DNA of 42,469 nt from Prolixibacteraceae bacterium (lineage in GTDB: Bacteria > Bacteroidota > Bacteroidia > Bacteroidales > Prolixibacteraceae), in the NCBI GenBank assembly GCA_016930735.1, contig JAFGGF010000109.1, positions 1 through 42,469 on the forward strand. Reading direction: 5' to 3'. A program made the translations under genes and the position numbers. Shown here in pieces: positions 22,826 through 42,469 of the stretch. Numbering within the stretch: position 1 is the first letter of the stretch; every line of letters begins with the position of its first letter. The notes beneath the pieces were generated by a model. That model did not search any database and was not told the DNA's origin. It worked only from the letters and a program-made list of their open reading frames with translations.

Positions 22826-24100
22826 TTACATAATAATGATCATACCACCGCCACCTCCATTCCGGAATCGTGGATTTACTACATTATTATATATCGATCC
22901 AAAAGTATAAGTCAATCCAAAACTGGTAAAGTAAGAATAACTTGTTTCCAGTTCCTTTTGCCTTGTAAGTATCTCTTCAGCTGTTGCACCGGCTTTTTCA
23001 AGTGAAATCTGATCGTGAATTAATGATACGCTGCCACCAAGGTTAAACGACAATCCTTTTGCAATCCTGAACTCCATATTACCTGATAAAGACAAATTAT
23101 TCAATTTCCAGTCATGTAAATAATTGCTCCATTCAACACCCATATTTATTGAACCCCACTTTTGAATAATGTTGTAAGTAACATCCATTGAATGTTCCCA
23201 TAAACTTTCTTCCATTTTATTGTATACAGTTGTATCGTTATAATTGTGGTAACGATAACCCAACTCGTATAAAAATGAAAGTTGCCTCCTGGTTGATTCA
23301 GAATATGGAAAGACATTGTATTCTATACCCGGCATAATTGAAAAAATCATTCTATGATTTCTGTAAATTGATGAACTTACTTCAGCTTCTCCTCCAACCG
23401 ACCAATGGTCATTAAGACTTTTAACAACCAAAGCTTCAAACGATTTGGAATTTGACTCGCTTTTTATAATATCATCTTCAATTTCAAATTTATCCAATCC
23501 ATAATCATAGCCTAAATCAAAAATCAATTTCCAGTCTTTTGTAATCCTGCTTGCAGAAAAGCTTCCAAATAAATTTGTTGATTTTAATGTTTTTTGTCCG
23601 TTCATAAATCCATTAATTCTTGATCTGAAGACCCAGCTATCCCATTTATCTGTGGTGACTTCTTCCTGAATTGGTTTGGTGAAGACTATATTTATGTGTT
23701 TCGATAAAGGAGTTTTCGCCACATAACGCATTAACGCCATTTTCAAAATTGAAACCTGTTTTTGCCTCCTCATATCATCAGAATCATCGGGTAAAGTGGC
23801 AACCGATACTGTATCACTCATCCCGTTAAATTCATGCTGCCCTTCCAGGAAATATGTATATACCCAGCCGCCTGAACCGGATCTTTCCTGTGTGTCGATA
23901 ATATAAATCTGGGCATCTTTTAAATCTCTCACATAATTGATAAACGGGATTTCCCTTTTTATATAATCATTGGCATCCATATATACTTTCAAAGCATCTT
24001 TCCGAAGTGAATCCGGGGTTTCAGTGTTAACCGTAAATTCCTGAGCTGAAAGTGTTAACGAGAGAAATACAATAAAAAGGACTGAACAAAGTGTTTTCAT
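22826..24100 (-). CDS. Exported protein, probable outer-membrane beta-barrel, function unknown
   Basis: Signal peptide MKTLCSVLFIVFLSLTLSAQ. The C-terminal two thirds show an alternating beta pattern ending ...GLTYTFGSIYNNVVNPRF, followed by an odd tail RNGGGGGMIIIM. Confidence 0.55.
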   Translation of the reverse strand: MKTLCSVLFIVFLSLTLSAQEFTVNTETPDSLRKDALKVYMDANDYIKREIPFINYVRDLKDAQIYIIDTQERSGSGGWVYTYFLEGQHEFNGMSDTVSVATLPDDSDDMRRQKQVSILKMALMRYVAKTPLSKHINIVFTKPIQEEVTTDKWDSWVFRSRINGFMNGQKTLKSTNLFGSFSASRITKDWKLIFDLGYDYGLDKFEIEDDIIKSESNSKSFEALVVKSLNDHWSVGGEAEVSSSIYRNHRMIFSIMPGIEYNVFPYSESTRRQLSFLYELGYRYHNYNDTTVYNKMEESLWEHSMDVTYNIIQKWGSINMGVEWSNYLHDWKLNNLSLSGNMEFRIAKGLSFNLGGSVSLIHDQISLEKAGATAEEILTRQKELETSYSYFTSFGLTYTFGSIYNNVVNPRFRNGGGGGMIIIM

Positions 24101-29154: not shown

Positions 29155-31257
29155 TCAATCAATCTGATTGCTAATCCCTCCGTATTTTTTCAGGTTTCTT
29201 TGGTATATTTCCTTTTGCTGAGCCAATAATTCACGAAACCGGGTATCTGAACGTAAAAAATTATAAATTGGATTATACATCATTTCGATATAATTAGACC
29301 TTTCAGAATCTTTAACACGTTCAAAATAATTTTCCATTAAATTAACAGCCATATTATTCATCTGTAAAATCAGGCAAATCCTCATTCTATTTTCAGAATG
29401 GAGATTTACTGCCAGGGCTTTTTCTTTTTCATTGCCATAGGCTAAAAATACTGCCTTTAAAAACTGATTATCCTGTGTTGCCGGGAAATACTGATTATAA
29501 AGGGCACCCCATTTTAGAGCTTCTTTATTTTCTTTCATCTGAAGCAACAACAAAATATAATTCAGCAGATATTTCGGATCGTTTGGCTCCAGATTTAATG
29601 CTTCTCTGTAATATGTTTTGGATTTTTCCATTTGCCCTAAATGATTGTAGATATTTGCCACATAATAATAATTTTTGGCATCGTACGGATCCAGTTTAAT
29701 ACACCGGTCATAATAACCCAGGGCAATTTCTTTTAATCCAATGTTGTCGAAACAAATTCCCATGGCACTGATGTTTTCCGGATCGTTATTATCAAGTTCC
29801 ACCGCCTTTTTTATGTATTCAAATTTTTTATCGATCTGATTTCTTGCACCGTAAATCCAGCCTAAAACCCTGTTGACATCAGCAGAATTTTTATCCAGAT
29901 CATATGCAATATTAATATATTTTTCCTGGAGATTTAAACATCTCATTCTTTCAACATCGCTTAAAACCTGCGTATTCCAATATGTATTGTACAAATCTGC
30001 CAGCCCTGCATATGCCGGCGCATAAGTTGAATCAAGCTCAATTGCTTTTAAAAACATACTTTCCGATTCTTTAAAATCCATAATATTTGCAGATGACCAG
30101 AATTTGTTTCTGTGTATAAACTGGGCTTTCAAAAAATATTCATATGCTTTAATATCAGGAGTACTCTTTGATTTAATAAGATTCTCTTCATCCAGCGAAA
30201 GCTTTTTATACAAAGTGTCTGCGATCGATTTTGCTATGTCATCCTGAATAATAAATAATTCTTTGTCTTCCCTGTCGTATTCTTCAGCCCAGATGTGAGA
30301 TCCATCCAGGGTTTTTACCAATTGGGCTGTAATCCTTATCCTGTTTCCATATTTTCTTATGCTGCCTTCAAGAATATTATTAACATTCAGTTCTTTCCCG
30401 ATTTCAGGTATTGTTTTATCAGATCCCTTAAATTTCATTGTCGATGTTCTGGCAATCACTTTTAAAGTACCTAACCGGGCCAGGTTTGTAATGATCTGCT
30501 CTGTGGTCCCGTCGCAAAAATATTCCTGATCGCCTTCTGAACTTAAATCAACAAACGGAAGTACTGCAACCGAATTAGCCCATTCCTGATTTTCAACCTG
30601 AATTTTATTTTCACTAAAAAATCTGTCTGAAAATTTTATTCCAAGAAAAACAGAGGTTATTACAAACAGTATCAAAACAATGAAAAGAATATAATTTTTA
30701 AAGACCTTAAATGATTTTTTCAATGGGCTAACTTCAAGCCACTCAAATTCGACAATATAAATTGTGACTCGCTTTTTAATGTTTTTAAGTTTTTTCTTTT
30801 CAATTTTTGCCAGAGAAAAATCAATTTTATTCTGAACCTGTCTTGCAACATCTTCGGAAACACAAATACCACCAATCGGAGCATATGCTTCAATCCTTGA
30901 AGCAATATTTACTCCATCGCCAAGTACATTTTTGCCTTTGGGCACAACATCGCTTAAGTGAATACCGATCCTTATTTTAATTTGATTTTTTTCAGGGACT
31001 TTCAGATTTCTTTTCCAGAGCCCTTTCTGGATTTCAATAGCACAATTAACAGCGTCCAGGACACTTGCAAATTCAACCAAAAAAGCATCTCCAACGGTTT
31101 CAACTTCACGCCCGTCGTGCTGTTGGAAAAAAAACCGCAATATTTGCCTGTGTTCCTCCAGCAAATCAAGTGCAAATGCCTCGTCTTCCTGAGTCAGGGC
31201 ACTGTAGCCTACCATATCGGTAAACATAATTGCTGCCAATCGACGTTTTTCCTGCAT
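29155..31257 (-). CDS. Class III adenylate/guanylate cyclase (N-terminal catalytic domain) - TM - TolB-N-like domain - TPR repeats
   Basis: RLAAIMFTDMVGYS and ETVGDAFLVEF carry the metal-binding Asp residues. IRIGIHLSDVV and GDGVNIASRIE carry the Asn/Arg. One TM helix, ILFIVLILFVITSVFLGI. SVAVLPFVDLSSEGDQEYFCDGTTEQIITNLARL is the TolB-like module. Multiple TPR-like repeats follow in the C-terminal 300 aa. Confidence 0.85.
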   Translation of the reverse strand: MQEKRRLAAIMFTDMVGYSALTQEDEAFALDLLEEHRQILRFFFQQHDGREVETVGDAFLVEFASVLDAVNCAIEIQKGLWKRNLKVPEKNQIKIRIGIHLSDVVPKGKNVLGDGVNIASRIEAYAPIGGICVSEDVARQVQNKIDFSLAKIEKKKLKNIKKRVTIYIVEFEWLEVSPLKKSFKVFKNYILFIVLILFVITSVFLGIKFSDRFFSENKIQVENQEWANSVAVLPFVDLSSEGDQEYFCDGTTEQIITNLARLGTLKVIARTSTMKFKGSDKTIPEIGKELNVNNILEGSIRKYGNRIRITAQLVKTLDGSHIWAEEYDREDKELFIIQDDIAKSIADTLYKKLSLDEENLIKSKSTPDIKAYEYFLKAQFIHRNKFWSSANIMDFKESESMFLKAIELDSTYAPAYAGLADLYNTYWNTQVLSDVERMRCLNLQEKYINIAYDLDKNSADVNRVLGWIYGARNQIDKKFEYIKKAVELDNNDPENISAMGICFDNIGLKEIALGYYDRCIKLDPYDAKNYYYVANIYNHLGQMEKSKTYYREALNLEPNDPKYLLNYILLLLQMKENKEALKWGALYNQYFPATQDNQFLKAVFLAYGNEKEKALAVNLHSENRMRICLILQMNNMAVNLMENYFERVKDSERSNYIEMMYNPIYNFLRSDTRFRELLAQQKEIYQRNLKKYGGISNQID

Positions 31258-34150: not shown

Positions 34151-35122
34151 TTACAACCGGAATGTCCTGGAAACGATAAACGTTAATCCAACACCTGCCC
34201 CCAATTGTGTACCTTTAAAATATTGATAAACGGGAACATCGGTCATTGCCGATAAATACCATTTTTCTTTTATTACATAGTTGATTTGCGGAGTAATAAA
34301 AAACAGGTTGCTCCCTGAAGATTCCTTTTTGACTCCTTCAATTTTATCAACTCCCCTGAACTCATTCCGCACCTGCAGGATGGTAGTCCAGTCGCCTTTC
34401 AACCTCGGGAACATCAGGTGCTTTGAAATATATACCGAGGTAAATACTGCAGTTCCCAGGCGATAGTCTTTTTTATTCGGAGCATTGGATTCAACCCGGC
34501 TGGTAAAAAAATACCGCATCCCGGTACCTGAGTTTTCTTTCACAAAAATGGCATTCATTACTGTACCATATGCCCCGATAGTTGGTTGTACCTCTACAGG
34601 CAATTGTACATTTTTTACATACTGAGGATTTCGTGAACCGGGGATTTTCAGACCCAGCCCGCCTGTTAAATAAATCCTTTTAACCGGGTCGGTAAAAAGG
34701 CTGTGTTTTGCCAGTAAAACAAAATTGGAAATCCCTTTCCCGGTTAATTTGTAAATTGGATCCAGATTATATTCCTGGCTTTTATTAAAAAAATACCCGG
34801 TTTCAAGTTCAAGAGTAAGTTTATAAGTTAATCCATAACCAATTGATGTCGAGACATAATTATAGAATGCCCTGTTTATCAGATTAAAGTCGGCATGTTT
34901 ATTCTTCTCATAGTATCGGTTCCCCTGCCCGAACTTATAAAAAGTAATGACCCTAAGTGATTTTTTTTCCAGCACCAGGAGATTATCAGTCCCACCCACC
35001 GGATTTACAGAACTTAAACATTGTGACCTTGTCAATACAGGGAAAAGGACGAATACGATTATAGCAATATATTTTCTATTCAATAACAACAATATCAATG
35101 GTTTTAGTTTCTGACTGATCAT
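34151..35122 (-). CDS. Outer-membrane beta-barrel protein, function unknown (third gene of the FISUMP operon)
   Basis: Signal-like N-terminus ...NRKYIAIIVFVLFPVLTRSQ. Alternating beta pattern with a C-terminal ...GLTFIVSRTFRL. The ATG at 35122 overlaps the upstream gene by 47 nt. An alternative TTG at 35083 (MNRKYIAII...) would overlap by 8 nt. Confidence 0.6.
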   Translation of the reverse strand: MISQKLKPLILLLLNRKYIAIIVFVLFPVLTRSQCLSSVNPVGGTDNLLVLEKKSLRVITFYKFGQGNRYYEKNKHADFNLINRAFYNYVSTSIGYGLTYKLTLELETGYFFNKSQEYNLDPIYKLTGKGISNFVLLAKHSLFTDPVKRIYLTGGLGLKIPGSRNPQYVKNVQLPVEVQPTIGAYGTVMNAIFVKENSGTGMRYFFTSRVESNAPNKKDYRLGTAVFTSVYISKHLMFPRLKGDWTTILQVRNEFRGVDKIEGVKKESSGSNLFFITPQINYVIKEKWYLSAMTDVPVYQYFKGTQLGAGVGLTFIVSRTFRL

Positions 35123-35429
35123 TTTTATCGATTACCTCACATGTAACCTGGTTAGTTCCCACATGGCAACGTGAAGATGCATAAATCACTTCTGACCCGG
35201 AACCCAGCAGGTCGCCTTTTGTAGCTGACCATAAAAACTCAAGGTCCGAACCGGTGGCTATAGCTTTTATTAAAGTAGTATCGCCTGAAAAAAGTGTGTC
35301 TTTTTCTGCTTCAAGCGATATAAAATTCAATTCCTGAACAGGGCCTGTTTCTTCCGGATCATTTTCACCACAACCGAAGTGGAGGATTAACAGAAATAAT
35401 CCAATTCCATATAAAATCTTTTTATTCAT
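35076..35429 (-). CDS. Small lipoprotein with an Ig-like/all-beta domain, function unknown
   Basis: MNKKILYGIGLFLLILHFGC has a lipobox. The rest (ISLEAEKDTLFSGDTTLIKAIATGSDLEFLWSATKGDL...VTCEVIDKNDQSETKTIDIVV) reads like a single Ig/PKD-like beta sandwich. It overlaps the upstream gene by 8 nt. Confidence 0.6.
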   Translation of the reverse strand: MNKKILYGIGLFLLILHFGCGENDPEETGPVQELNFISLEAEKDTLFSGDTTLIKAIATGSDLEFLWSATKGDLLGSGSEVIYASSRCHVGTNQVTCEVIDKNDQSETKTIDIVVIE

Positions 35430-36525
35430 CTTTTATACATCTTACTGAAAAACCATAATTTTTAGTGAATGTATTCCATCTCCCTACATCATTTGCATTG
35501 ATATCGAGGCACCTTCTCCATGCATAATTGCCGTATTCAGTCGAAGTCCATAGATATTCCACCTGCCCTATTAAACTGTAACCTCCTGAAGGCAACCTCC
35601 TTCCTGACAACATGGCGTCGAAACCGGTACTGCCGCCTTCTTTTAATTTTGTTCCAACATCGGTACCCCTCCACTTATTTATCATCTGAGCTTCTTCCTC
35701 CGTCATTCCCAGATACATTTCCAGTACCATGTATTCTTCATCGCTGGGAATATGCCATCCATCAGGGCATATGCCCTGTGCTCTCTCCTCAACAGATCCA
35801 TTCATTGCAACATTCCAGTCGTAAAGCCTTCCATAGGTTCTTACAAACGAAGTATCATTCCTGTATGAATAACCATCTATTTCAGAGCTATCCGGGGCAC
35901 AGGTTACCCTTAAGTTTTCCTTCATCCAGGTTTGGGTACCAATTCGGACTGTTGCATATACATTCCCGCTAACATCGGTTAAACGATCGGTTAAAATAAT
36001 GGTGTCCATTTTTGTATTCCCAGCATCATCAGTAACTGTTAGTATATAAGTACCGGCCATTAATCCTGAAATATTTTGCGTTGTTTCACCATTCGACCAT
36101 AAAAAACTCAGCGGCAAATATCCTCCGGTAACAGTTGTGTTGATGCTACCGTCGGAAGCACCGGTTTCCGATGGGTTGTTTGTTTCAAATTGAACCTCTA
36201 TGTCTTCCGGGGCAGGTTCAATAACGACAAAAGTATCTTTTGCCTGTTGCCCCACAGAATCGATTACCGAAACATAATAAAAGCCTAAACTCAATCCATC
36301 TATATCTTCTGTTGTTTGATTATTTGACCACAAAAAAGCATAAGGCTTTAAGCCACCTGTTACGATTAAATCGATTGCACCATCATTCCCACCATAAACA
36401 CTTACATGTGTTACAGTACCACTTAAAACCAAAGGTGGATATGTTTCAAACAGTTCTTCCTGACATCTGATAAAAATGATTATCGTTATCAGAATTATTC
36501 CTGTAAGGATAATTTTATTTCTCAT
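35422..36525 (-). CDS. Lipoprotein with two SprB-type repeats and a C-terminal FISUMP domain (Fibrobacter succinogenes major paralogous domain)
   Basis: The ATG at 36525 gives MRNKIILTGIILITIIIFIRC (lipobox). SprB repeats: GGNDGAIDLIVTGGLKPYAFLWSNNQTTEDIDGLSLGFYYVSV and GASDGSINTTVTGGYLPLSFLWSNGETTQNISGLMAGTYILTV. FISUMP motifs: IGTQTWMKENL, YGRLYDW, CPDGWHIPS, LWTSTE, GFSVRCIKD. Confidence 0.8.
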   Translation of the reverse strand: MRNKIILTGIILITIIIFIRCQEELFETYPPLVLSGTVTHVSVYGGNDGAIDLIVTGGLKPYAFLWSNNQTTEDIDGLSLGFYYVSVIDSVGQQAKDTFVVIEPAPEDIEVQFETNNPSETGASDGSINTTVTGGYLPLSFLWSNGETTQNISGLMAGTYILTVTDDAGNTKMDTIILTDRLTDVSGNVYATVRIGTQTWMKENLRVTCAPDSSEIDGYSYRNDTSFVRTYGRLYDWNVAMNGSVEERAQGICPDGWHIPSDEEYMVLEMYLGMTEEEAQMINKWRGTDVGTKLKEGGSTGFDAMLSGRRLPSGGYSLIGQVEYLWTSTEYGNYAWRRCLDINANDVGRWNTFTKNYGFSVRCIKDE

Positions 36526-36917
36526 GGCAGAACTTTTAAAATTTACATATGTACAGCATATACCAACAGTAAATCTTAAACCTGTTTTTTTAAAATGGTT
36601 TGAGTTTGCATTTACCTGGGTTTTTATCAAATCAATAACCAAATTTATGACAAAAAGCTCAGAAAATCAAATTGATATTGTTTCTTTTTTCAAACTTTTG
36701 TTCATAATGTCAAGAGGCGGAATGTCTATTCTCAAAAAACAAGAGAAGGTTGTTTATAACAGATCAATTAGATATTGCTAGGTTAGCTTTATTATTGCCA
36801 GATGGAAGACATTTTACAGCATATGATGTTCATGGAGTTATTGATTCTGATGGATATGTAACTGTTGTCATTAACTGGCAATTTTTTGAAGAAGATTTAA
36901 CTAATTGTTATTTTAAT

Positions 36918-36946
36918 AGCCTTGGAAATTTCCGGGGCTTTTTTAT
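36918..36946 (+). terminator. Plus-strand rho-independent terminator-like hairpin with no annotated plus-strand gene upstream
   Basis: agccttgg-aaattt-ccggggct forms an 8-bp stem that includes two G-U pairs only when read as plus-strand RNA, followed by tttttt. Read on the minus strand, the two wobbles become C-A mismatches and no U-run follows. Confidence 0.5.
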
Positions 36947-36958
36947 TCTGATTTCTTC

Positions 36959-38629
36959 TCAATTTTTATTCTGAACCATCAGTTTACCTAAACCAAATTC
37001 CCCTACTGAATTTTCCAGTTTAAAAAAGTAGAGACCTGGTTCAAGCCGATTCCTGTTAAAGGTAATGTTATGATTACCTGAAGGTAAATCACCCAACCGG
37101 TCAAACACTACCTGCTGTCCTCCAATGTTAAATACTGACAAGCTGATTTCTGAACTTTTCTTCAGGTTAAACCGGATTGTAGTAGATTCTGAGAATGGAT
37201 TCGGAAAATTTGATACATTCAGGAAATCTTCTTGTTTGTGAATAATTTCAGCTGCAGTATTTATTTTAGACAAACGTAAGTCAACTGTATTAACCGATTT
37301 GGGAGGTACAACCAAAAGGGTGTCGGCAAGGTAATTTGTTGATTTGAAATTTTCATTTTCCGAAGTGGAATAGGAAACAGCTTCTTCAATTTTATAATCC
37401 GGTATATCCAACTGAATTTTAAAAGTATCTGTTTCAGAACGATTAATTACAACAAACGATGCAGAATCGGAAGAATTACTGATAAATGCAGCCGATTTCA
37501 GGTTATTATTTATACTAGTTGTACCAATACGTTTCCAGTCTGGATGAATAAATGCTGAATAATGTTTGAATACATAAAAAAACTTTGTGCGCCTGTATCC
37601 TTTTGTATTGCCCCAGCTGTTTCTGTCCCAGGGATTATCAATACTTACCAGCCCTCCGCCATTGACCCAAACCAGGTCCCAGTATAAAAAAGCAGTTGCA
37701 CTTTCCTCAACCAGGGTTTGATACATCATTGCAGCAACCGAAAACCAATCGGCCCTTGAATATTCGGTTTGGAAATGGGGCACTTCCGGATGGAAATTGC
37801 CCACTGTCCTATAATAGGAGGATGTAAACGGATCGCCCTCCACAGTTCCGCTTTCAGCACCGTGATACAGATGGTGCCCTATTCCGTAGAGTTTTGAAAG
37901 GTCGAGTGCGTTAATATAATTCTGTAAGGTTCCATAACCAATTCCCACACATTCAGGTCCAAGGAAATAAGGGACGCTGTCGCGCTGAGAAACAACATCA
38001 TAAACCGCATCCAACGCCTTGTTATAACCGGCAATGGTATCTGTGGAATTAATTGTCTCTGAAGGCTTCAACAGACACGACTCCCATGAAGCACTGAAAT
38101 CCGGTTCATTTTGAATACCGATGTACCTGGGATAAATTCCGTTGGCATTATAATTATCCAGTGATTCGTTCCACCAGTTGGCAAATGCACCATAATCAAA
38201 TACTACTTTATTTTCCTCAACAGAATATTTGATTGTACCACCGTTAACTCTTTCATTGTTACTTTTTAACGAAGCAGGTGGTCCCCAGGAAGTAACTAAT
38301 ATATCAATAGGATGCCCCAGTTGTATATTAGCCGCGGTGGCAAATTGTTTTACACGCCCGACCATTCCATTATCATAACCATAAGCATTTCTCACCCTGA
38401 GGATATCAAGGCTTAATTCCTTAAAAATAATGTTATAAATTTCATTCCTGTTCGGATGGGCTGTCAGCCAGTTCTCATAAAATGCCAGGGAAGCACCAAA
38501 ACCCGTAATTTCCTGAAAAGTTTCTTTGGTATCTATTTGAATTAGTTTAGTTTCAACCGACTGGGCAAATCCGGTAGAAAATCCTAATAAAGAGAAAATT
38601 ATTATCAGTATAATTTTTTTAACCTGCAT
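36959..38629 (-). CDS. Glycoside hydrolase family 30-like enzyme with a T9SS C-terminal sorting domain
   Basis: GFGASLAFYENW, VTSWGPPASLKSN and YIGIQNEPD (acid/base Glu block) fit GH30. The C-terminal FPNPFSESTTIRFNLKKSSEISLSVFNIGGQQV...GLYFFKLE is a Por_Secre_tail. The ATG at 38629 gives MQVKKIILIIIFSLLGFSTGFAQS. Confidence 0.65.
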   Translation of the reverse strand: MQVKKIILIIIFSLLGFSTGFAQSVETKLIQIDTKETFQEITGFGASLAFYENWLTAHPNRNEIYNIIFKELSLDILRVRNAYGYDNGMVGRVKQFATAANIQLGHPIDILVTSWGPPASLKSNNERVNGGTIKYSVEENKVVFDYGAFANWWNESLDNYNANGIYPRYIGIQNEPDFSASWESCLLKPSETINSTDTIAGYNKALDAVYDVVSQRDSVPYFLGPECVGIGYGTLQNYINALDLSKLYGIGHHLYHGAESGTVEGDPFTSSYYRTVGNFHPEVPHFQTEYSRADWFSVAAMMYQTLVEESATAFLYWDLVWVNGGGLVSIDNPWDRNSWGNTKGYRRTKFFYVFKHYSAFIHPDWKRIGTTSINNNLKSAAFISNSSDSASFVVINRSETDTFKIQLDIPDYKIEEAVSYSTSENENFKSTNYLADTLLVVPPKSVNTVDLRLSKINTAAEIIHKQEDFLNVSNFPNPFSESTTIRFNLKKSSEISLSVFNIGGQQVVFDRLGDLPSGNHNITFNRNRLEPGLYFFKLENSVGEFGLGKLMVQNKN

Positions 38630-38775
38630 CTTCGTTGATTTAAGTTTTACAGTTAATTTCGGATAAAAATAGTATAATTTGCCGGCATTCATCGATTATA
38701 AATTTTTTACAGGAATTTTTTCAATTTTCTTAAAGTTTAAATAATTCACTGCTATTTATAACTAAACTGAACCTT

Positions 38776-39750
38776 ATGAAAGAGCAAACTGAATTTAAAA
38801 ACAGATTTTTCCCCGTCCTTTCCCTGGTATTTATTTCAACCTTTATTCCCGAAATATTAATGGGATCAACTCCGTTAAGCAGGGCAAATGAATGGCCTGT
38901 TGAGTTTGTTTTTTACGGATCGGCTGCACTTCTTATCCGGGAAATGGCTTTCAGGTATAAAACAGGCTGGGTGGGTGTATTCCTGGCTGGAATAGCATTT
39001 GGTTTATTTGAAGAAGGATTTGTGCTTCAATCGATATTTAATCCTGAATTTCTGGGCAATAACCTCACTTTCGGAAGGGTATTTGGTACCAATGTTGTAT
39101 GGGCTCAGTTTATTGTTGGTTACCATGCTATTTTCAGTATAACAATTCCAATCCTTTTTACAGAAATAATTTTTCCGAAACAGAAATTCACACCCTGGCT
39201 TTCAAAAACAGGATTATGGATTTTTACGGTTCTGTTTGTCCTGAGCAGTATTTTTCTTTATCTGGTATTGAATTCTTTTTCCGGATTCAATTCCTTATTT
39301 TTATTAAAACTTATCGTTCTCATTATAATTGCTTTAATTATTTTCCTGACATTTAAGTTTAAGCCAGGCTTTCCTACAGGGAATAATACCATATCTGTTT
39401 CACCAGTTATTTCCGGATTAGCTTCGTTTATTGCCTGTCTTTTATGGTTGGCCGGATTGTATCCTGTTTTTATGGAAACAAAATTTTTACCTCCCTGGTC
39501 GGTTCATCTCGCTGGACTGGCTGTTCTGGTTTTTGCTGTAATTATTGCAAAATCATGGCTTAACCATAAATGGACAAAAATGAACCAGTTTGCATTTATT
39601 TCTGGTGGACTGGTTGCAGGGATGATTCATGGCAGTAATATCGTTTTTCAATCAGGAAACAGAATGGATATTTATTTTCAGATAATCTTTATTACAGTAA
39701 CAGTTTTATTCCTGTCTATTTCAGGTATTAAGATTTGGGAAAGTGAATAA
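38776..39750 (+). CDS. Polytopic inner-membrane protein (~8 TM), function unknown; faint CPBP/YhfC-like intramembrane protease motifs
   Basis: Highly hydrophobic 324-aa ORF. GLFEEGFVLQS (an EE motif on a TM helix), VGYHAIFS and MIHGSNIV loosely resemble the EExxxR / FxxxH / HxxxN pattern, but the Arg is missing. Confidence 0.6.
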   Translation: MKEQTEFKNRFFPVLSLVFISTFIPEILMGSTPLSRANEWPVEFVFYGSAALLIREMAFRYKTGWVGVFLAGIAFGLFEEGFVLQSIFNPEFLGNNLTFGRVFGTNVVWAQFIVGYHAIFSITIPILFTEIIFPKQKFTPWLSKTGLWIFTVLFVLSSIFLYLVLNSFSGFNSLFLLKLIVLIIIALIIFLTFKFKPGFPTGNNTISVSPVISGLASFIACLLWLAGLYPVFMETKFLPPWSVHLAGLAVLVFAVIIAKSWLNHKWTKMNQFAFISGGLVAGMIHGSNIVFQSGNRMDIYFQIIFITVTVLFLSISGIKIWESE

Positions 39751-39885
39751 AATAAAAATAAAATAGTAATGCAATTTCTAATTTAACCTTAAAAATCCCT
39801 GTTAAAAATCAGTAAAATCGTTAACAGAAAATAAAATAATTTTTCTATCTTGTATAACATCATTGGAAACCAAAGGATATACAAA

Positions 39886-40092
39886 GTGGAACTTTCGGCA
39901 AAACGGCTTCAGTTATACGGATTAATAAGGGAATGCCCTATGGGTAAACCACTTTCCGACTGCCCTGTTAATGAATACAGGAACCTTTCGCTTATTGAAC
40001 AATATCAGGTAGCTGAATCCCTCGAATACGAATTACTTTGCAGCATTCTTTTTTATCATGAAGTTTGCCTGTCGTTAAGGGAGACCAGGTAA
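39886..40092 (+). CDS. Small Cys/His protein, paralogue 1 (68 aa from the GTG; 80 aa if the TTG at 39850 is used), family unknown
   Basis: VELSAKRLQLYGLIRECPMGKPLSDCPVNEYRNLSLIEQYQVAESLEYELLCSILFYHEVCLSLRETR. It aligns ungapped with the next ORF from the GTG onward, at 23 of 68 identical positions including C-x8-C and H-x2-C. Confidence 0.6.
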   Translation: MELSAKRLQLYGLIRECPMGKPLSDCPVNEYRNLSLIEQYQVAESLEYELLCSILFYHEVCLSLRETR

Positions 40093-40189
40093 ATTTTCCA
40101 ATTTTCTTAATTAATATTAAGGGAAATCCCTATTTATCAGATAACATTTAAACCCTTACCTTGCCCTTGAATTGGAATGATAAATAAAA

Positions 40190-40447
40190 ATGAAATTAAA
40201 TGACCAGAAACTTTGGTTATTTGGATTAATGCTAGAATGTCCGTTTGGAGTAAGGTCAGAAAATTGTCCGGCAGGTGATTTTCAGAATAATTCTGTTACA
40301 GAAAAACTTGATATCATTGATTCCCTCAACATAGAAAAAATACATATTTTGATTGAGCAACATGAAGCATGTCTTGAACGCAGGGAGAATTTAATGATAC
40401 AAAATTTTCCGAATCAAATTAAAAACGATCAAACAGCTGTTCCATAA
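40190..40447 (+). CDS. Small Cys/His protein, paralogue 2 (85 aa), family unknown
   Basis: MKLNDQKLWLFGLMLECPFGVRSENCPAGDFQNNSVTEKLDIIDSLNIEKIHILIEQHEACLERRENL... It has an ATG start. The conserved Cys/Pro/Gly codons differ from paralogue 1 only at synonymous third positions. The 3' end overlaps the convergent peptidase gene by 29 nt. Confidence 0.65.
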   Translation: MKLNDQKLWLFGLMLECPFGVRSENCPAGDFQNNSVTEKLDIIDSLNIEKIHILIEQHEACLERRENLMIQNFPNQIKNDQTAVP

Positions 40448-41654
40448 TTATGTAGGTGTCGTTCATAATTTTACTCCTCCAGGGTTCAGATGTAGGATAA
40501 TACATTTCAACAAAATTCTCCAATACTTTTAAACTATCCCTTTCTGATTGATAACCAAATCTTTTCCCCTCGTTTTCAAGGATCATATTATGAATTGATT
40601 TTACCGATCCAATAGTAGTCTGCGAATTCAAAGTTCCGTATTCAAATGTCATCGGGAGGTAAAATTTATCAGGGATTAATTTCCCGATATAATCACTGAA
40701 TGAACCATTGATGGTATAAAAGTCGTCTGAATCACCCCAGTCGATCTGATAGCCGGTAAAAATTTCTTCCATCTTCTGTTTCACATTCAAGTCTTCTACC
40801 GGATTTGGGAATAAATGCAAAACACCCCTTGCGCCGTAACCCGTATGCAGGTCGATATTTAATATCGTATCATAATCAGCTGATTTCTCACTTATCACTT
40901 CACCGATTATTGAAAGTTGCGGTTCAAAATTATTTCCTCCGTAATACAGTCCTTCGGGATATTCATATTGACCTTGCAAAACTGCCTGCCTTAAAGCAGA
41001 CATTGATTCCTGCATCAATTTATTTATTGCAACCAACATGAAAAATTTATTTTTCAGGCTGCCTGAAATAACTTTCCCCTTTGGGTTTAACATATCGTAA
41101 AGATCGGTATAACCTGCATTTTCGCTTGAAAACAGTGTCATTTCAGTATCGCAGTTCCGGTTAAAGTCAATATTGTTTTCCGTTACTCTTCTGGTATATT
41201 TAAATCCATAAGGATTGATCCCGTGTATAAATAAAACTCCCAGATCATCCGGCATTCCTGTTTTAAGATACTGGTCGATTATCATCTGCTGAACCGCACT
41301 TCCGACAAAACCTTCAATTCCGTGAACACCTGAAGTTAAGATTAAAAGTTTTTTACTTTCTTTTTGGGCCGGCACGTAACAAAAATCAATTTTTAGAGTT
41401 GAATCAACTCCTGAAGGTACTGCTTTTGAAAAAATTTCAACTTTAAAAAATCTTTCACAACACATATCAGCAGAATTGATAAAAGATTCACGGCAGGATT
41501 CATAAGAATCCTCAAAATATTTCATTTTCGACTGGTCGACTTCGTATTCTACCTTGCCTGGCGAATAGGAATTAAAACTGATATATGTATAACCAAGGAT
41601 ACCAACAATAATTATCAGGATAACAATGCCCAGAATTTTCAGGAACTTTTTCAT
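40419..41654 (-). CDS. Membrane-anchored M14-like zinc carboxypeptidase superfamily protein (DUF2817-type)
   Basis: LLILTSGVHGIEGFVGS (HxxE zinc ligands), LFIHGINPYGFKYTRRVTENNIDFNRN and NIDLHTGYG (third His) fit the DUF2817 branch of M14/succinylglutamate-desuccinylase-like proteins. The ATG at 41654 gives MKKFLKILGIVILIIIVGILG (N-terminal anchor). Confidence 0.7.
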   Translation of the reverse strand: MKKFLKILGIVILIIIVGILGYTYISFNSYSPGKVEYEVDQSKMKYFEDSYESCRESFINSADMCCERFFKVEIFSKAVPSGVDSTLKIDFCYVPAQKESKKLLILTSGVHGIEGFVGSAVQQMIIDQYLKTGMPDDLGVLFIHGINPYGFKYTRRVTENNIDFNRNCDTEMTLFSSENAGYTDLYDMLNPKGKVISGSLKNKFFMLVAINKLMQESMSALRQAVLQGQYEYPEGLYYGGNNFEPQLSIIGEVISEKSADYDTILNIDLHTGYGARGVLHLFPNPVEDLNVKQKMEEIFTGYQIDWGDSDDFYTINGSFSDYIGKLIPDKFYLPMTFEYGTLNSQTTIGSVKSIHNMILENEGKRFGYQSERDSLKVLENFVEMYYPTSEPWRSKIMNDTYIIMEQLFDRF

Positions 41655-41728
41655 AGTTTTTGAATTGAAAGTAATTTCAAAGGTACAATCCTCATAGATC
41701 AAAAACAATTACAATTGACATAAAGCAC

Positions 41729-41780: not shown

Positions 41781-42469
41781 TTACCAGCCACCTAATCCTG
41801 TATGATCTAATCCTTTATAAAGCAAACCATGATCATCAACTCCACTGCCTCCTTGCACTTCCTGAATAATAGCAAATTCTCCCCAAATAACCGGCCCTAT
41901 TTCAACACCATCTGAAGTATACCACACTCCTCCGTCAGCAACTGCATCAGAAGGTGCTGCAACAATCTTGCATTTATATGTATAACCATCCGGCCCACCC
42001 ATTTTTTCAGAATACATTTCCCATGCACCGGAACCGATATAAGAAGGTAATCTATAATGCCTGTCTAAACTTTCATCTCCATGGCAATCAGTATTTGCAA
42101 GCCAGGCATCATTCCATTTCATATCAATTTCATACATCCTGTAAGGCCACGCCCAATGATTTACAACTGCAGGATTTTCTGCGAAGTAAGCATCATCATC
42201 ACCTTCATAAGGTGGAAATCCAGCTGCACCCAAATAAGCATTGACATAAGAACCTTTGAACAAGTGAGCTTGGTAATTGTATCCAAAAATATCGTATCCT
42301 GTTGTTAATGGTTCCCCCGCAAGAAAGTGAGCCGCAGAATAAGTTAAAATACCATCCTGAATTGATACACAGGTATTGGCAACTTCAGTTTTTACTTTTT
42401 TACCTCCTTTGAGCATTACATCATCATCTAAAGCAGAATCAGAACATCCGGCAATAAAAATAATTGCCA
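41781..42469 (-). CDS. Lipoprotein of unknown function; partial, 5' end beyond window end
   Basis: The track ORF starts at 42416, but the frame stays open upstream to the window edge and reads ...AIIFIAGCSDSALDDDVMLKGG. IAGC is a lipobox, so the true start lies outside the window. I recognised no family. Confidence 0.6.
   Translation of the reverse strand, partial: AIIFIAGCSDSALDDDVMLKGGKKVKTEVANTCVSIQDGILTYSAAHFLAGEPLTTGYDIFGYNYQAHLFKGSYVNAYLGAAGFPPYEGDDDAYFAENPAVVNHWAWPYRMYEIDMKWNDAWLANTDCHGDESLDRHYRLPSYIGSGAWEMYSEKMGGPDGYTYKCKIVAAPSDAVADGGVWYTSDGVEIGPVIWGEFAIIQEVQGGSGVDDHGLLYKGLDHTGLGGW

Follow-up and report, generated by a model that had tools for sequence, protein, structure and literature searches.

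In a 42,469-nt stretch of a Prolixibacteraceae genome (contig JAFGGF010000109.1 of assembly GCA_016930735.1, forward strand, hereafter the window), two adjacent open reading frames (ORFs) on the same strand, here named orfA and orfB, almost certainly belong to a real conserved protein family. This family is new to the curated databases Pfam and NCBIfam, and no PDB structure matches the fold predicted for it. Three cysteines and one histidine are essentially invariant among its members and, judging from alignment and modelling, probably form one metal or cofactor site. The reading that we favour, by a modest degree of confidence, is that the two genes encode stand-alone cytoplasmic Cys3His metalloproteins, most likely binding zinc, that work as small partner-binding regulatory or adaptor modules; the metal and the role are what we infer within this reading.

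The first-pass annotation of this DNA, made from the sequence alone, had described the two ORFs as small divergent paralogues, and both their positions (Table 1) and their gapless alignment were reproduced here. BLASTP aligned the proteins with 24 identities and 41 positives over 67 positions and 0 gaps (E 9e-17); the value of 23 of 68 given earlier differs by whether the start codon is counted, and the conserved residue skeleton quoted for both ORFs was correct. At the DNA level no alignment above chance was obtained (local score 10.0 versus 8.9 +/- 1.2 for dinucleotide shuffles, p 0.20), and the similarity is therefore kept at the protein level only. The sequence itself bears out the reported codon differences, which are synonymous only, at the conserved residues Cys, Pro, Gly and Leu, with tgc/tgt at both loop cysteines and at the cysteine of helix 4, cct/ccg at both prolines, ggt/gga at Gly20 and ctg/ctt at Leu62. 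For orfA, an alternative TTG start at 39850 would give a protein of 80 aa. As most family members have 14-20 residues before the first cysteine, and orfA has 16 with the GTG at 39886 and 28 with the TTG, the family alignment favours the GTG; an AGGA lies 8 nt upstream of it. A hidden Markov model (HMM) scan of all six-frame ORFs of at least 40 aa detected no third family copy in the window.

The size of the family was determined by an exhaustive HMMER search, in which a profile built from orfA and orfB was run against 1.84 billion cluster representatives. Homologues do exist: 503 representatives reached E<=1e-3, 25 of them E<=1e-10, and almost all are 65-90 aa long and matched end to end. Searches that need shared exact words, run with single-sequence queries, matched only a near-identical copy in a metagenome-assembled genome (MAG), and a 79-sequence profile in a word-indexed search found just 7 proteins. 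Members of named origin come from Prolixibacteraceae, from Maribellus maritimus (WP_238767500.1) and from one MAG each of Nitrospirota and Neomarinimicrobiota, and all of them are annotated as 'hypothetical protein'. A degenerate DNA motif pattern recovered 99 metagenome loci, 89 of which hold a true member according to the family HMM; the G+C content of the family loci ranges from 29 to 66%.

Conservation was first read in an alignment of 79 sequences, in which the columns of Cys17, Cys26, His58 and Cys61 are invariant and those of Pro18, Pro27 and Arg65 exceed 90%. Residue counts were taken from 158 sequences aligned to the family HMM, with the number aligned varying by column. Of the 156-158 sequences aligned at each column, at least 155 keep the residue that the first-pass annotation had singled out there (Cys17 in 156 of 156, Cys26 in 157 of 158, His58 in 157 of 157 and Cys61 in 155 of 157). 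They are followed by Pro18 (151/156), Arg65 (146/153), Pro27 (145/158), Gly12 (128/156) and Arg32 (128/158). Exactly three cysteines are present in 97 of the 158 members, and the residue next to the Cys-Pro pair is F, L or M after Cys17-Pro18 and L, A, F or V after Cys26-Pro27. Purifying selection on the protein, which had been proposed from the codons of the two paralogues, is evident from the ratio of nonsynonymous to synonymous substitution rates (dN/dS), which is 0.06-0.35 for orthologous pairs at 72-86% nucleotide identity. Nothing beyond small size and the sole annotation 'hypothetical protein' would suggest that orfA and orfB are chance ORFs or non-coding DNA; with hundreds of homologues sharing invariant residues, dN/dS well below 1 and, across the window and three related loci, no Rfam family other than tRNAs, we consider this explanation scarcely credible.

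The first-pass annotation had left the two genes without a family, and our searches bear this out. Neither protein matched Pfam or NCBIfam at E<=10. The 79 members gave only scattered single matches to Pfam (E>0.008, no family in common) and no match in common to NCBIfam or PADLOC, and the sole PHROGs match had an E value of 0.09. Profile searches of PDB sequences reached at best E 0.038 and 0.96, while Foldseek searches with the orfA and orfB models reached at best E 3.8 against the PDB, with template modelling (TM) scores of at most 0.45, and E 0.9 against BFVD. Nothing on the family turned up in the literature, which was searched for the spacing of the motif and for heme motifs of the Cys-Pro type. 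Two candidate matches were treated as chance, namely Peptidase_M24_C (4 of the 79 members, best E 0.019; PDB 3ctz at E 0.96) and the Kelch structure 6ryv (E 0.038).

AlphaFold2 models based on the family alignment have a mean predicted local distance difference test score (pLDDT) of 96 and a predicted TM score (pTM) of 0.81 for orfA, and 89 and 0.69 for orfB. Both predict the same four helices (residues ~3-15, 27-32, 36-45 and 48-67/71), and the tail of orfB (residues 68-85), non-conserved in the family, is modelled at low confidence (pLDDT ~65). In these models Cys17 is at the end of helix 1, Cys26 is at the start of helix 2 after an Asp/Asn cap, and His58 and Cys61 are one turn apart on helix 4. 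Covariation was analysed by mean-field direct coupling analysis (DCA) of 223 distinct sequences, using only couplings between variable positions; mutual information with average product correction (MI-APC) was set aside, being dominated by artefacts from invariant columns. The DCA couplings between helix 1 and helix 4 run in parallel register (5-49, 6-52, 9-55 and 10-51), and loop residue 19 couples with residue 66 of helix 4; Cys17 is therefore placed beside His58 and Cys61. A single metal or cofactor site made of the four invariant residues is thus the probable arrangement. Zn(II) is favoured for it because it is the default for a one-ion Cys3His site, and we regard the case for zinc as evenly poised. 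The core isoelectric point (pI) is 4.8 for both orfA and orfB, with a family median of 6.5, values unlike those of a DNA-binding protein.

The same residues might also serve a redox, iron-sulfur (Fe-S) or heme sensor. The Cys3His set would then bind an Fe-S cluster as in IscR and mitoNEET, or the Cys-Pro pairs would serve as heme regulatory motifs, His58 supplying the second axial ligand, or the thiols would form a thiol/disulfide switch, so that oxygen, nitric oxide, heme or redox state would be reported to a partner. The near-invariant proline followed by a hydrophobic residue after both loop cysteines is the textbook heme regulatory motif, and such motifs can form redox switches (PMC2742820, PMC2652392). 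Named members come from Prolixibacteraceae, Nitrospirota and Neomarinimicrobiota, and tight neighbours of family genes include flavodoxin, molybdopterin oxidoreductase and cytochrome c-like proteins. However, zinc knuckles and the CueR loop commonly have a proline behind a cysteine ligand as well, each of the redox neighbours was met only once, and nothing in the analysis argues directly for Fe-S or heme. For a 65-aa helical protein with four invariant ligands spaced in this way, a Zn site is the simplest explanation, and we judge the Fe-S, heme and thiol forms, taken jointly, to be unlikely.

The loop between helices 1 and 2 resembles the metal-binding loop of the regulators CueR (from E. coli, where the loop binds Cu(I)) and MerR, in which a helix likewise ends in Cys-Pro, a short loop carries Asp/Asn before the second cysteine and a further Cys-Pro opens the next short helix; the cysteine spacing is C-x7-C in CueR and C-x8-C in both MerR and the family. 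By hhalign, helix 1 and the loop of the family align with residues 98-124 of CueR (sequence identical to PDB 1Q05), which comprise the end of the dimerisation helix and Cys112-Pro-Gly-x5-Cys120-Pro. The alignment covers 27 columns with a score of 26.0 (P 8e-4, probability just 24%), above all 600 unrelated ORF products used as controls (best 19.3), and this score is biased upward, as CueR was chosen post hoc for its motif. Since CueR was picked after the motif had been seen, the comparison establishes shared local architecture, not homology. Tn501 MerR (Cys117-x8-Cys126-Pro) aligns on both cysteines with P 0.065. In contrast to MerR and CueR, the family is without a winged-helix DNA-binding domain and without the long coiled-coil dimerisation helix, has no Pfam MerR match, is 68-85 aa long where CueR and MerR are ~135 aa, and adds two helices with the His-x2-Cys.

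This likeness invites the explanation that the proteins are stand-alone handlers or sensors of thiophilic metals. The CueR/MerR-like loop, together with His58 and Cys61, would bind Cu(I), Zn(II), Cd(II) or Hg(II) as a sensed and not a structural ligand, and the metal would be buffered, delivered or signalled to a partner. Apart from the alignments, the Maribellus gene speaks for it, lying 3-8 kb from CDF, ArsR, ArsP and arsenate-reductase-like genes. Against it, genes for metal transporters, chaperones or metalloregulators are not recurrent neighbours of family genes, and the helix-turn-helix of the MerR type is absent; given also the upward bias and the modest hhalign probabilities, we hold it to be improbable.

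The neighbourhood of the family gene is not conserved. No homologue of the window neighbours of orfA and orfB is found at any other family locus, and on three further long contigs the adjacent genes are again unrelated. In most cases the gene stands by itself and has an upstream region of its own, and the 103 flanking genes at other loci fall into 134 Pfam families, the commonest being Response_reg (8), HATPase_c (8) and HisKA (6). PAS histidine kinases form the largest cluster of neighbours by BLAST, at 10 of ~85 loci and in every orientation. Genes on the same strand within 16 nt include those for DinB, flavodoxin, a response regulator, molybdopterin oxidoreductase, DUF4386, a metallopeptidase and an integrase, and in two loci (L076 and L104) a histidine kinase. 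A conserved gene neighbourhood is ruled out by these differing tight partners and by the kinases in all orientations. A mobile-element origin was likewise rejected, with no tblastn match in plasmids or phages and no pattern match in IMG/VR.

Small cysteine-containing tandem paralogues might also be precursor peptides of a bacteriocin or another ribosomally synthesised and post-translationally modified peptide (RiPP), an idea that the first-pass annotation had already set aside. We agree, and consider precursor peptides very improbable. Neither a RiPP nor a radical SAM enzyme lies near orfA and orfB; no maturase, protease or transporter is nearby, in the window or across the 103 flanking genes, and no maturase is among the top families of the latter. 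The proteins are conserved over their full length and predicted to be folded (pLDDT 89-96), with no leader/core organisation and no signal peptide.

Two members look like real fusions. P0015 (153 aa, on an ENA contig of 2.2 kb) carries the family domain behind an MshEN-like motif that binds cyclic di-GMP (NF053729, E 2.7e-10), and in P0106 (187 aa) an N-terminal domain of ~110 aa, without assignment, precedes it. Further long-ORF 'fusions' in GC-rich loci were dismissed as artefacts of reading from stop to stop; in these an internal Met start lies directly ahead of the domain.

Several local arrangements were seen around single lineages. At L004-L007 (for example 8001-9404 in L004), which represent one metagenomic lineage, the family gene is 10-13 nt upstream of a gene for a Y-family DNA polymerase (DinB/IMS). 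At L045, L052, L096, L120 and L121 a convergent gamma-glutamyltranspeptidase gene ends 8-20 nt past the family gene, which is probably synteny within one lineage. The closest named orfB homologue, in Maribellus maritimus (L002, 10132-16204), is 2-8 kb from hemerythrin, CDF, ArsR and arsenate-reductase-like genes as well as from thioredoxin, DGC-domain and ArsP genes, and is divergent from the gene of a large PAS hybrid histidine kinase.

We also compared the two copies with their relatives. The tandem arrangement and the neighbours, whose conservation among homologues the first-pass annotation had left to be checked, turned out not to be conserved across the family: tandem copies occur in 3 of ~85 distinct loci, and only one other lineage keeps a pair. 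In this GC-rich lineage (L050 and L108) the pair is orthologous, with 64% identity between the first copies, 62% between the second copies and 40-44% within a pair, which is compatible with two copies working together. The genes of these pairs (L050 654-1562 and L108 13364-13828, both on the minus strand) are 3-15 nt apart, and in the second copy Cys-Ser replaces Cys-Pro at the first ligand. orfA and orfB rank only 24th and 43rd as relatives of each other, orfA being closest to a metagenomic fragment (61% identity) and orfB to the Maribellus protein (48% identity). The pair is therefore old or assembled from two lineages. Both ORFs are also present on a 2.8-kb contig of the Prolixibacteraceae MAG GCA_016937755.1, which is 99.7% identical over 2572 nt; its orfB protein is 98% identical, with two differences at variable positions (E24A and A83T).

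Taken as a whole, our favoured reading of Cys3His metalloproteins would work as follows. orfA and orfB would be two expressed, independently promoted genes for cytoplasmic proteins of ~8 kDa, each a compact four-helix bundle in which the Cys-Pro-x-Gly-x5-Cys-Pro loop is clamped to the His-x2-Cys of helix 4 by one metal ion. This tetrahedral Cys3His site, most likely occupied by Zn(II), would hold the small fold together. The protein would be a small module of regulatory or adaptor type that binds another macromolecule and whose activity depends on the metal site, and the tandem copies may cooperate, perhaps by forming a heterodimer. Binding of a macromolecule seems the most likely activity as the surface is not consistently basic, no pocket has the size expected of an enzyme and no gene is a fixed partner in an operon; the pI, the MshEN-like fusion and, again, the lack of a fixed partner gene point to a partner-binding or regulatory module and not to an enzyme or a DNA-binding protein. 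The regulatory or adaptor role is nevertheless put forward tentatively, as a rather doubtful part of the proposal.

A number of points weigh against this proposal. The geometry of the four residues is suggested by secondary structure and covariation only; Cys3His sets are also able to hold an Fe-S cluster, and Cys-Pro followed by a hydrophobic residue is also a heme regulatory motif. The two-component neighbours (histidine kinases and response regulators, 8-10 loci) are a weak lead and may reflect background frequency. Each of orfA and orfB has closer relatives than the other and, because tandem copies are found at so few loci, a heterodimer is not the general mode.

Upstream of the two genes, the sequence contains possible regulatory signals. 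The shared motif reported in the first-pass annotation is indeed present in two copies, and within the window AAATCCCTRTT...ATCAG occurs only at 39793 and 40124. Its significance is insecure, as alignment of the two upstream regions gave p 0.11 with both shuffled and p 0.04 with one shuffled, and the motif is absent upstream of other members, bar a loose resemblance ~300 nt upstream in Maribellus; a shared upstream operator is on these grounds unsupported. Similarly, the TAnnTTG elements described earlier do stand before both starts, but neither fits the full Bacteroidota -7 consensus TAnnTTTG, and at 0.87 per kb in the window each has a 4.6% chance of falling in a 60-nt stretch. A sigma-70 promoter scan stayed at chance level, no intrinsic terminator was found, and the inverted and direct repeats in 39740-40200 are all short. 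A sigma-54-like GG-N10-GC element was seen upstream of the L004 homologue, a pattern that was not seen again in L002, L003 or the window. A stretch of 19 nt inside orfA (39923-39941, codons 13-19, including Glu-Cys-Pro) is 84% identical to 40115-40133, upstream of orfB and including the 'shared motif' (local alignment p 0.009, a single test among six), and this likeness may be due to chance or be left over from an older copy of the gene.

Table 1. Positions of the two family genes, their putative ligand motifs and the possible upstream signals in the window
Feature	Position	Strand	Remarks
orfA	39886..40092	+	68 aa, GTG start, stop included (40090-40092); Cys3His small-protein family member; family HMM E 1.7e-24
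orfB	40190..40447	+	85 aa, ATG start, stop included (40445-40447); same family; family HMM E 8.1e-28
orfA loop Cys17-Pro18-x-Gly20-x5-Cys26-Pro27, helix 1 to helix 2	39934..39966	+	Putative metal-binding loop
orfA His58-x2-Cys61 on helix 4	40057..40068	+	Putative third and fourth ligands
orfB loop Cys17-Pro18-x-Gly20-x5-Cys26-Pro27	40238..40270	+	Family conservation
orfB His58-x2-Cys61 on helix 4	40361..40372	+	Family conservation
First copy of upstream motif, AAATCCCTGTTAAAAATCAG	39793..39812	+	Significance doubtful
Second copy of upstream motif, AAATCCCTATTTATCAG	40124..40140	+	Significance doubtful
TAtcTTG, partial Bacteroidota -7 element	39846..39852	+	33 nt before orfA GTG; weak evidence
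TAccTTG, partial -7-like element	40157..40163	+	26 nt before orfB ATG; weak evidence

The rest of the window looks like ordinary Bacteroidota chromosome, encoding GH127, GH10, a fucosidase, UxuA, RecJ, a MutS-like protein, a class II aminoacyl-tRNA synthetase and proteins with sorting tails of the type IX secretion system (T9SS). Upstream of orfA, 38776-39750 (+) encodes a hydrophobic, membrane-like protein of 324 aa; this ORF has no Pfam match, like the sizeable ORFs 41781-42416 (-), 22826-24100 (-) and 34151-35122 (-). Downstream of orfB is a convergent DUF2817 (M14-like) gene at 40419-41708 (-), followed by T9SS-tail proteins. The 3' ends of orfB and of the DUF2817 gene overlap by 29 nt (40419-40447), and the overlapped stretch of orfB is its non-conserved tail, residues 68-85. 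Two adjacent genes at 35422-38692 (-) encode T9SS C-terminal sorting domains, one of the proteins also having SprB repeats and a Fibrobacter succinogenes major domain, and 29155-31257 (-) encodes a 700-aa protein with a class III adenylate/guanylate cyclase domain and TPR repeats.

The family comprises hundreds of clusters with four invariant ligand residues, purifying selection and a confident predicted fold, yet it has no match in the PDB, Pfam or NCBIfam. Proteins of such small size are under-annotated, and many prove to be regulators. With a defined profile and a cultured host, Maribellus maritimus (WP_238767500.1), the family is approachable. If the CueR-like loop does bind metal reversibly, then the metal-sensing loop of the MerR type also exists in a free-standing form; if the Zn site has no more than a structural part in an adaptor, the family is a routine new domain without assigned function. 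The likely kind of protein, a small metal-stabilised helical module, is a familiar one, while the family itself is new to curated databases.

Among known systems other than CueR and MerR, several share part of these features. The ZAS anti-sigma factors (RsrA, ChrR; zf-HC2) are also small and all-helical, hold Zn by Cys and His residues of different helices and bind partner proteins with possible redox sensitivity. Their signature H-x3-C-x2-C is, however, not that of the family (C-x8-C plus H-x2-C), zf-HC2 matches 0 of 79 members, and sigma factor genes do not recur beside the family gene among the 103 flanking genes. CsoR/RcnR proteins (PF02583) are again small and all-helical with a Cys/His/Cys metal site between helices; they differ in ligand spacing, PF02583 matches 0 of 79 members at E<=1, and the family topology is without a Foldseek match in the PDB. 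With heme regulatory motif proteins such as HO-2, Rev-erb beta and Irr the family shares two invariant Cys-Pro-hydrophobic motifs and an invariant histidine, but such motifs as a rule belong to flexible parts of proteins that are larger, whereas here they frame a confidently folded loop. WhiB-like (Wbl) proteins of Actinobacteria differ in having four cysteines (C-xn-C-x2-C-x5-C) and a [4Fe-4S] cluster, occur in other taxa and show no sequence or Pfam match; like the family, they are stand-alone helical proteins of ~80 aa with four invariant cofactor ligands and a variable gene context, and they act by binding the transcription machinery.

These comparisons also allow a more speculative reading, to which we give little weight, namely that the family is a new class of stand-alone sensors. 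A minimal four-helix module without a PDB counterpart, with a CueR-like loop closed by His-x2-Cys, would bind a metal, an Fe-S cluster or heme reversibly and signal to varying partners (kinases, polymerases, transcription machinery), with tandem copies forming heterodimers. Such proteins would be a functional parallel to Wbl proteins or ZAS domains across Bacteroidota, Nitrospirota, Marinimicrobia and other phyla.

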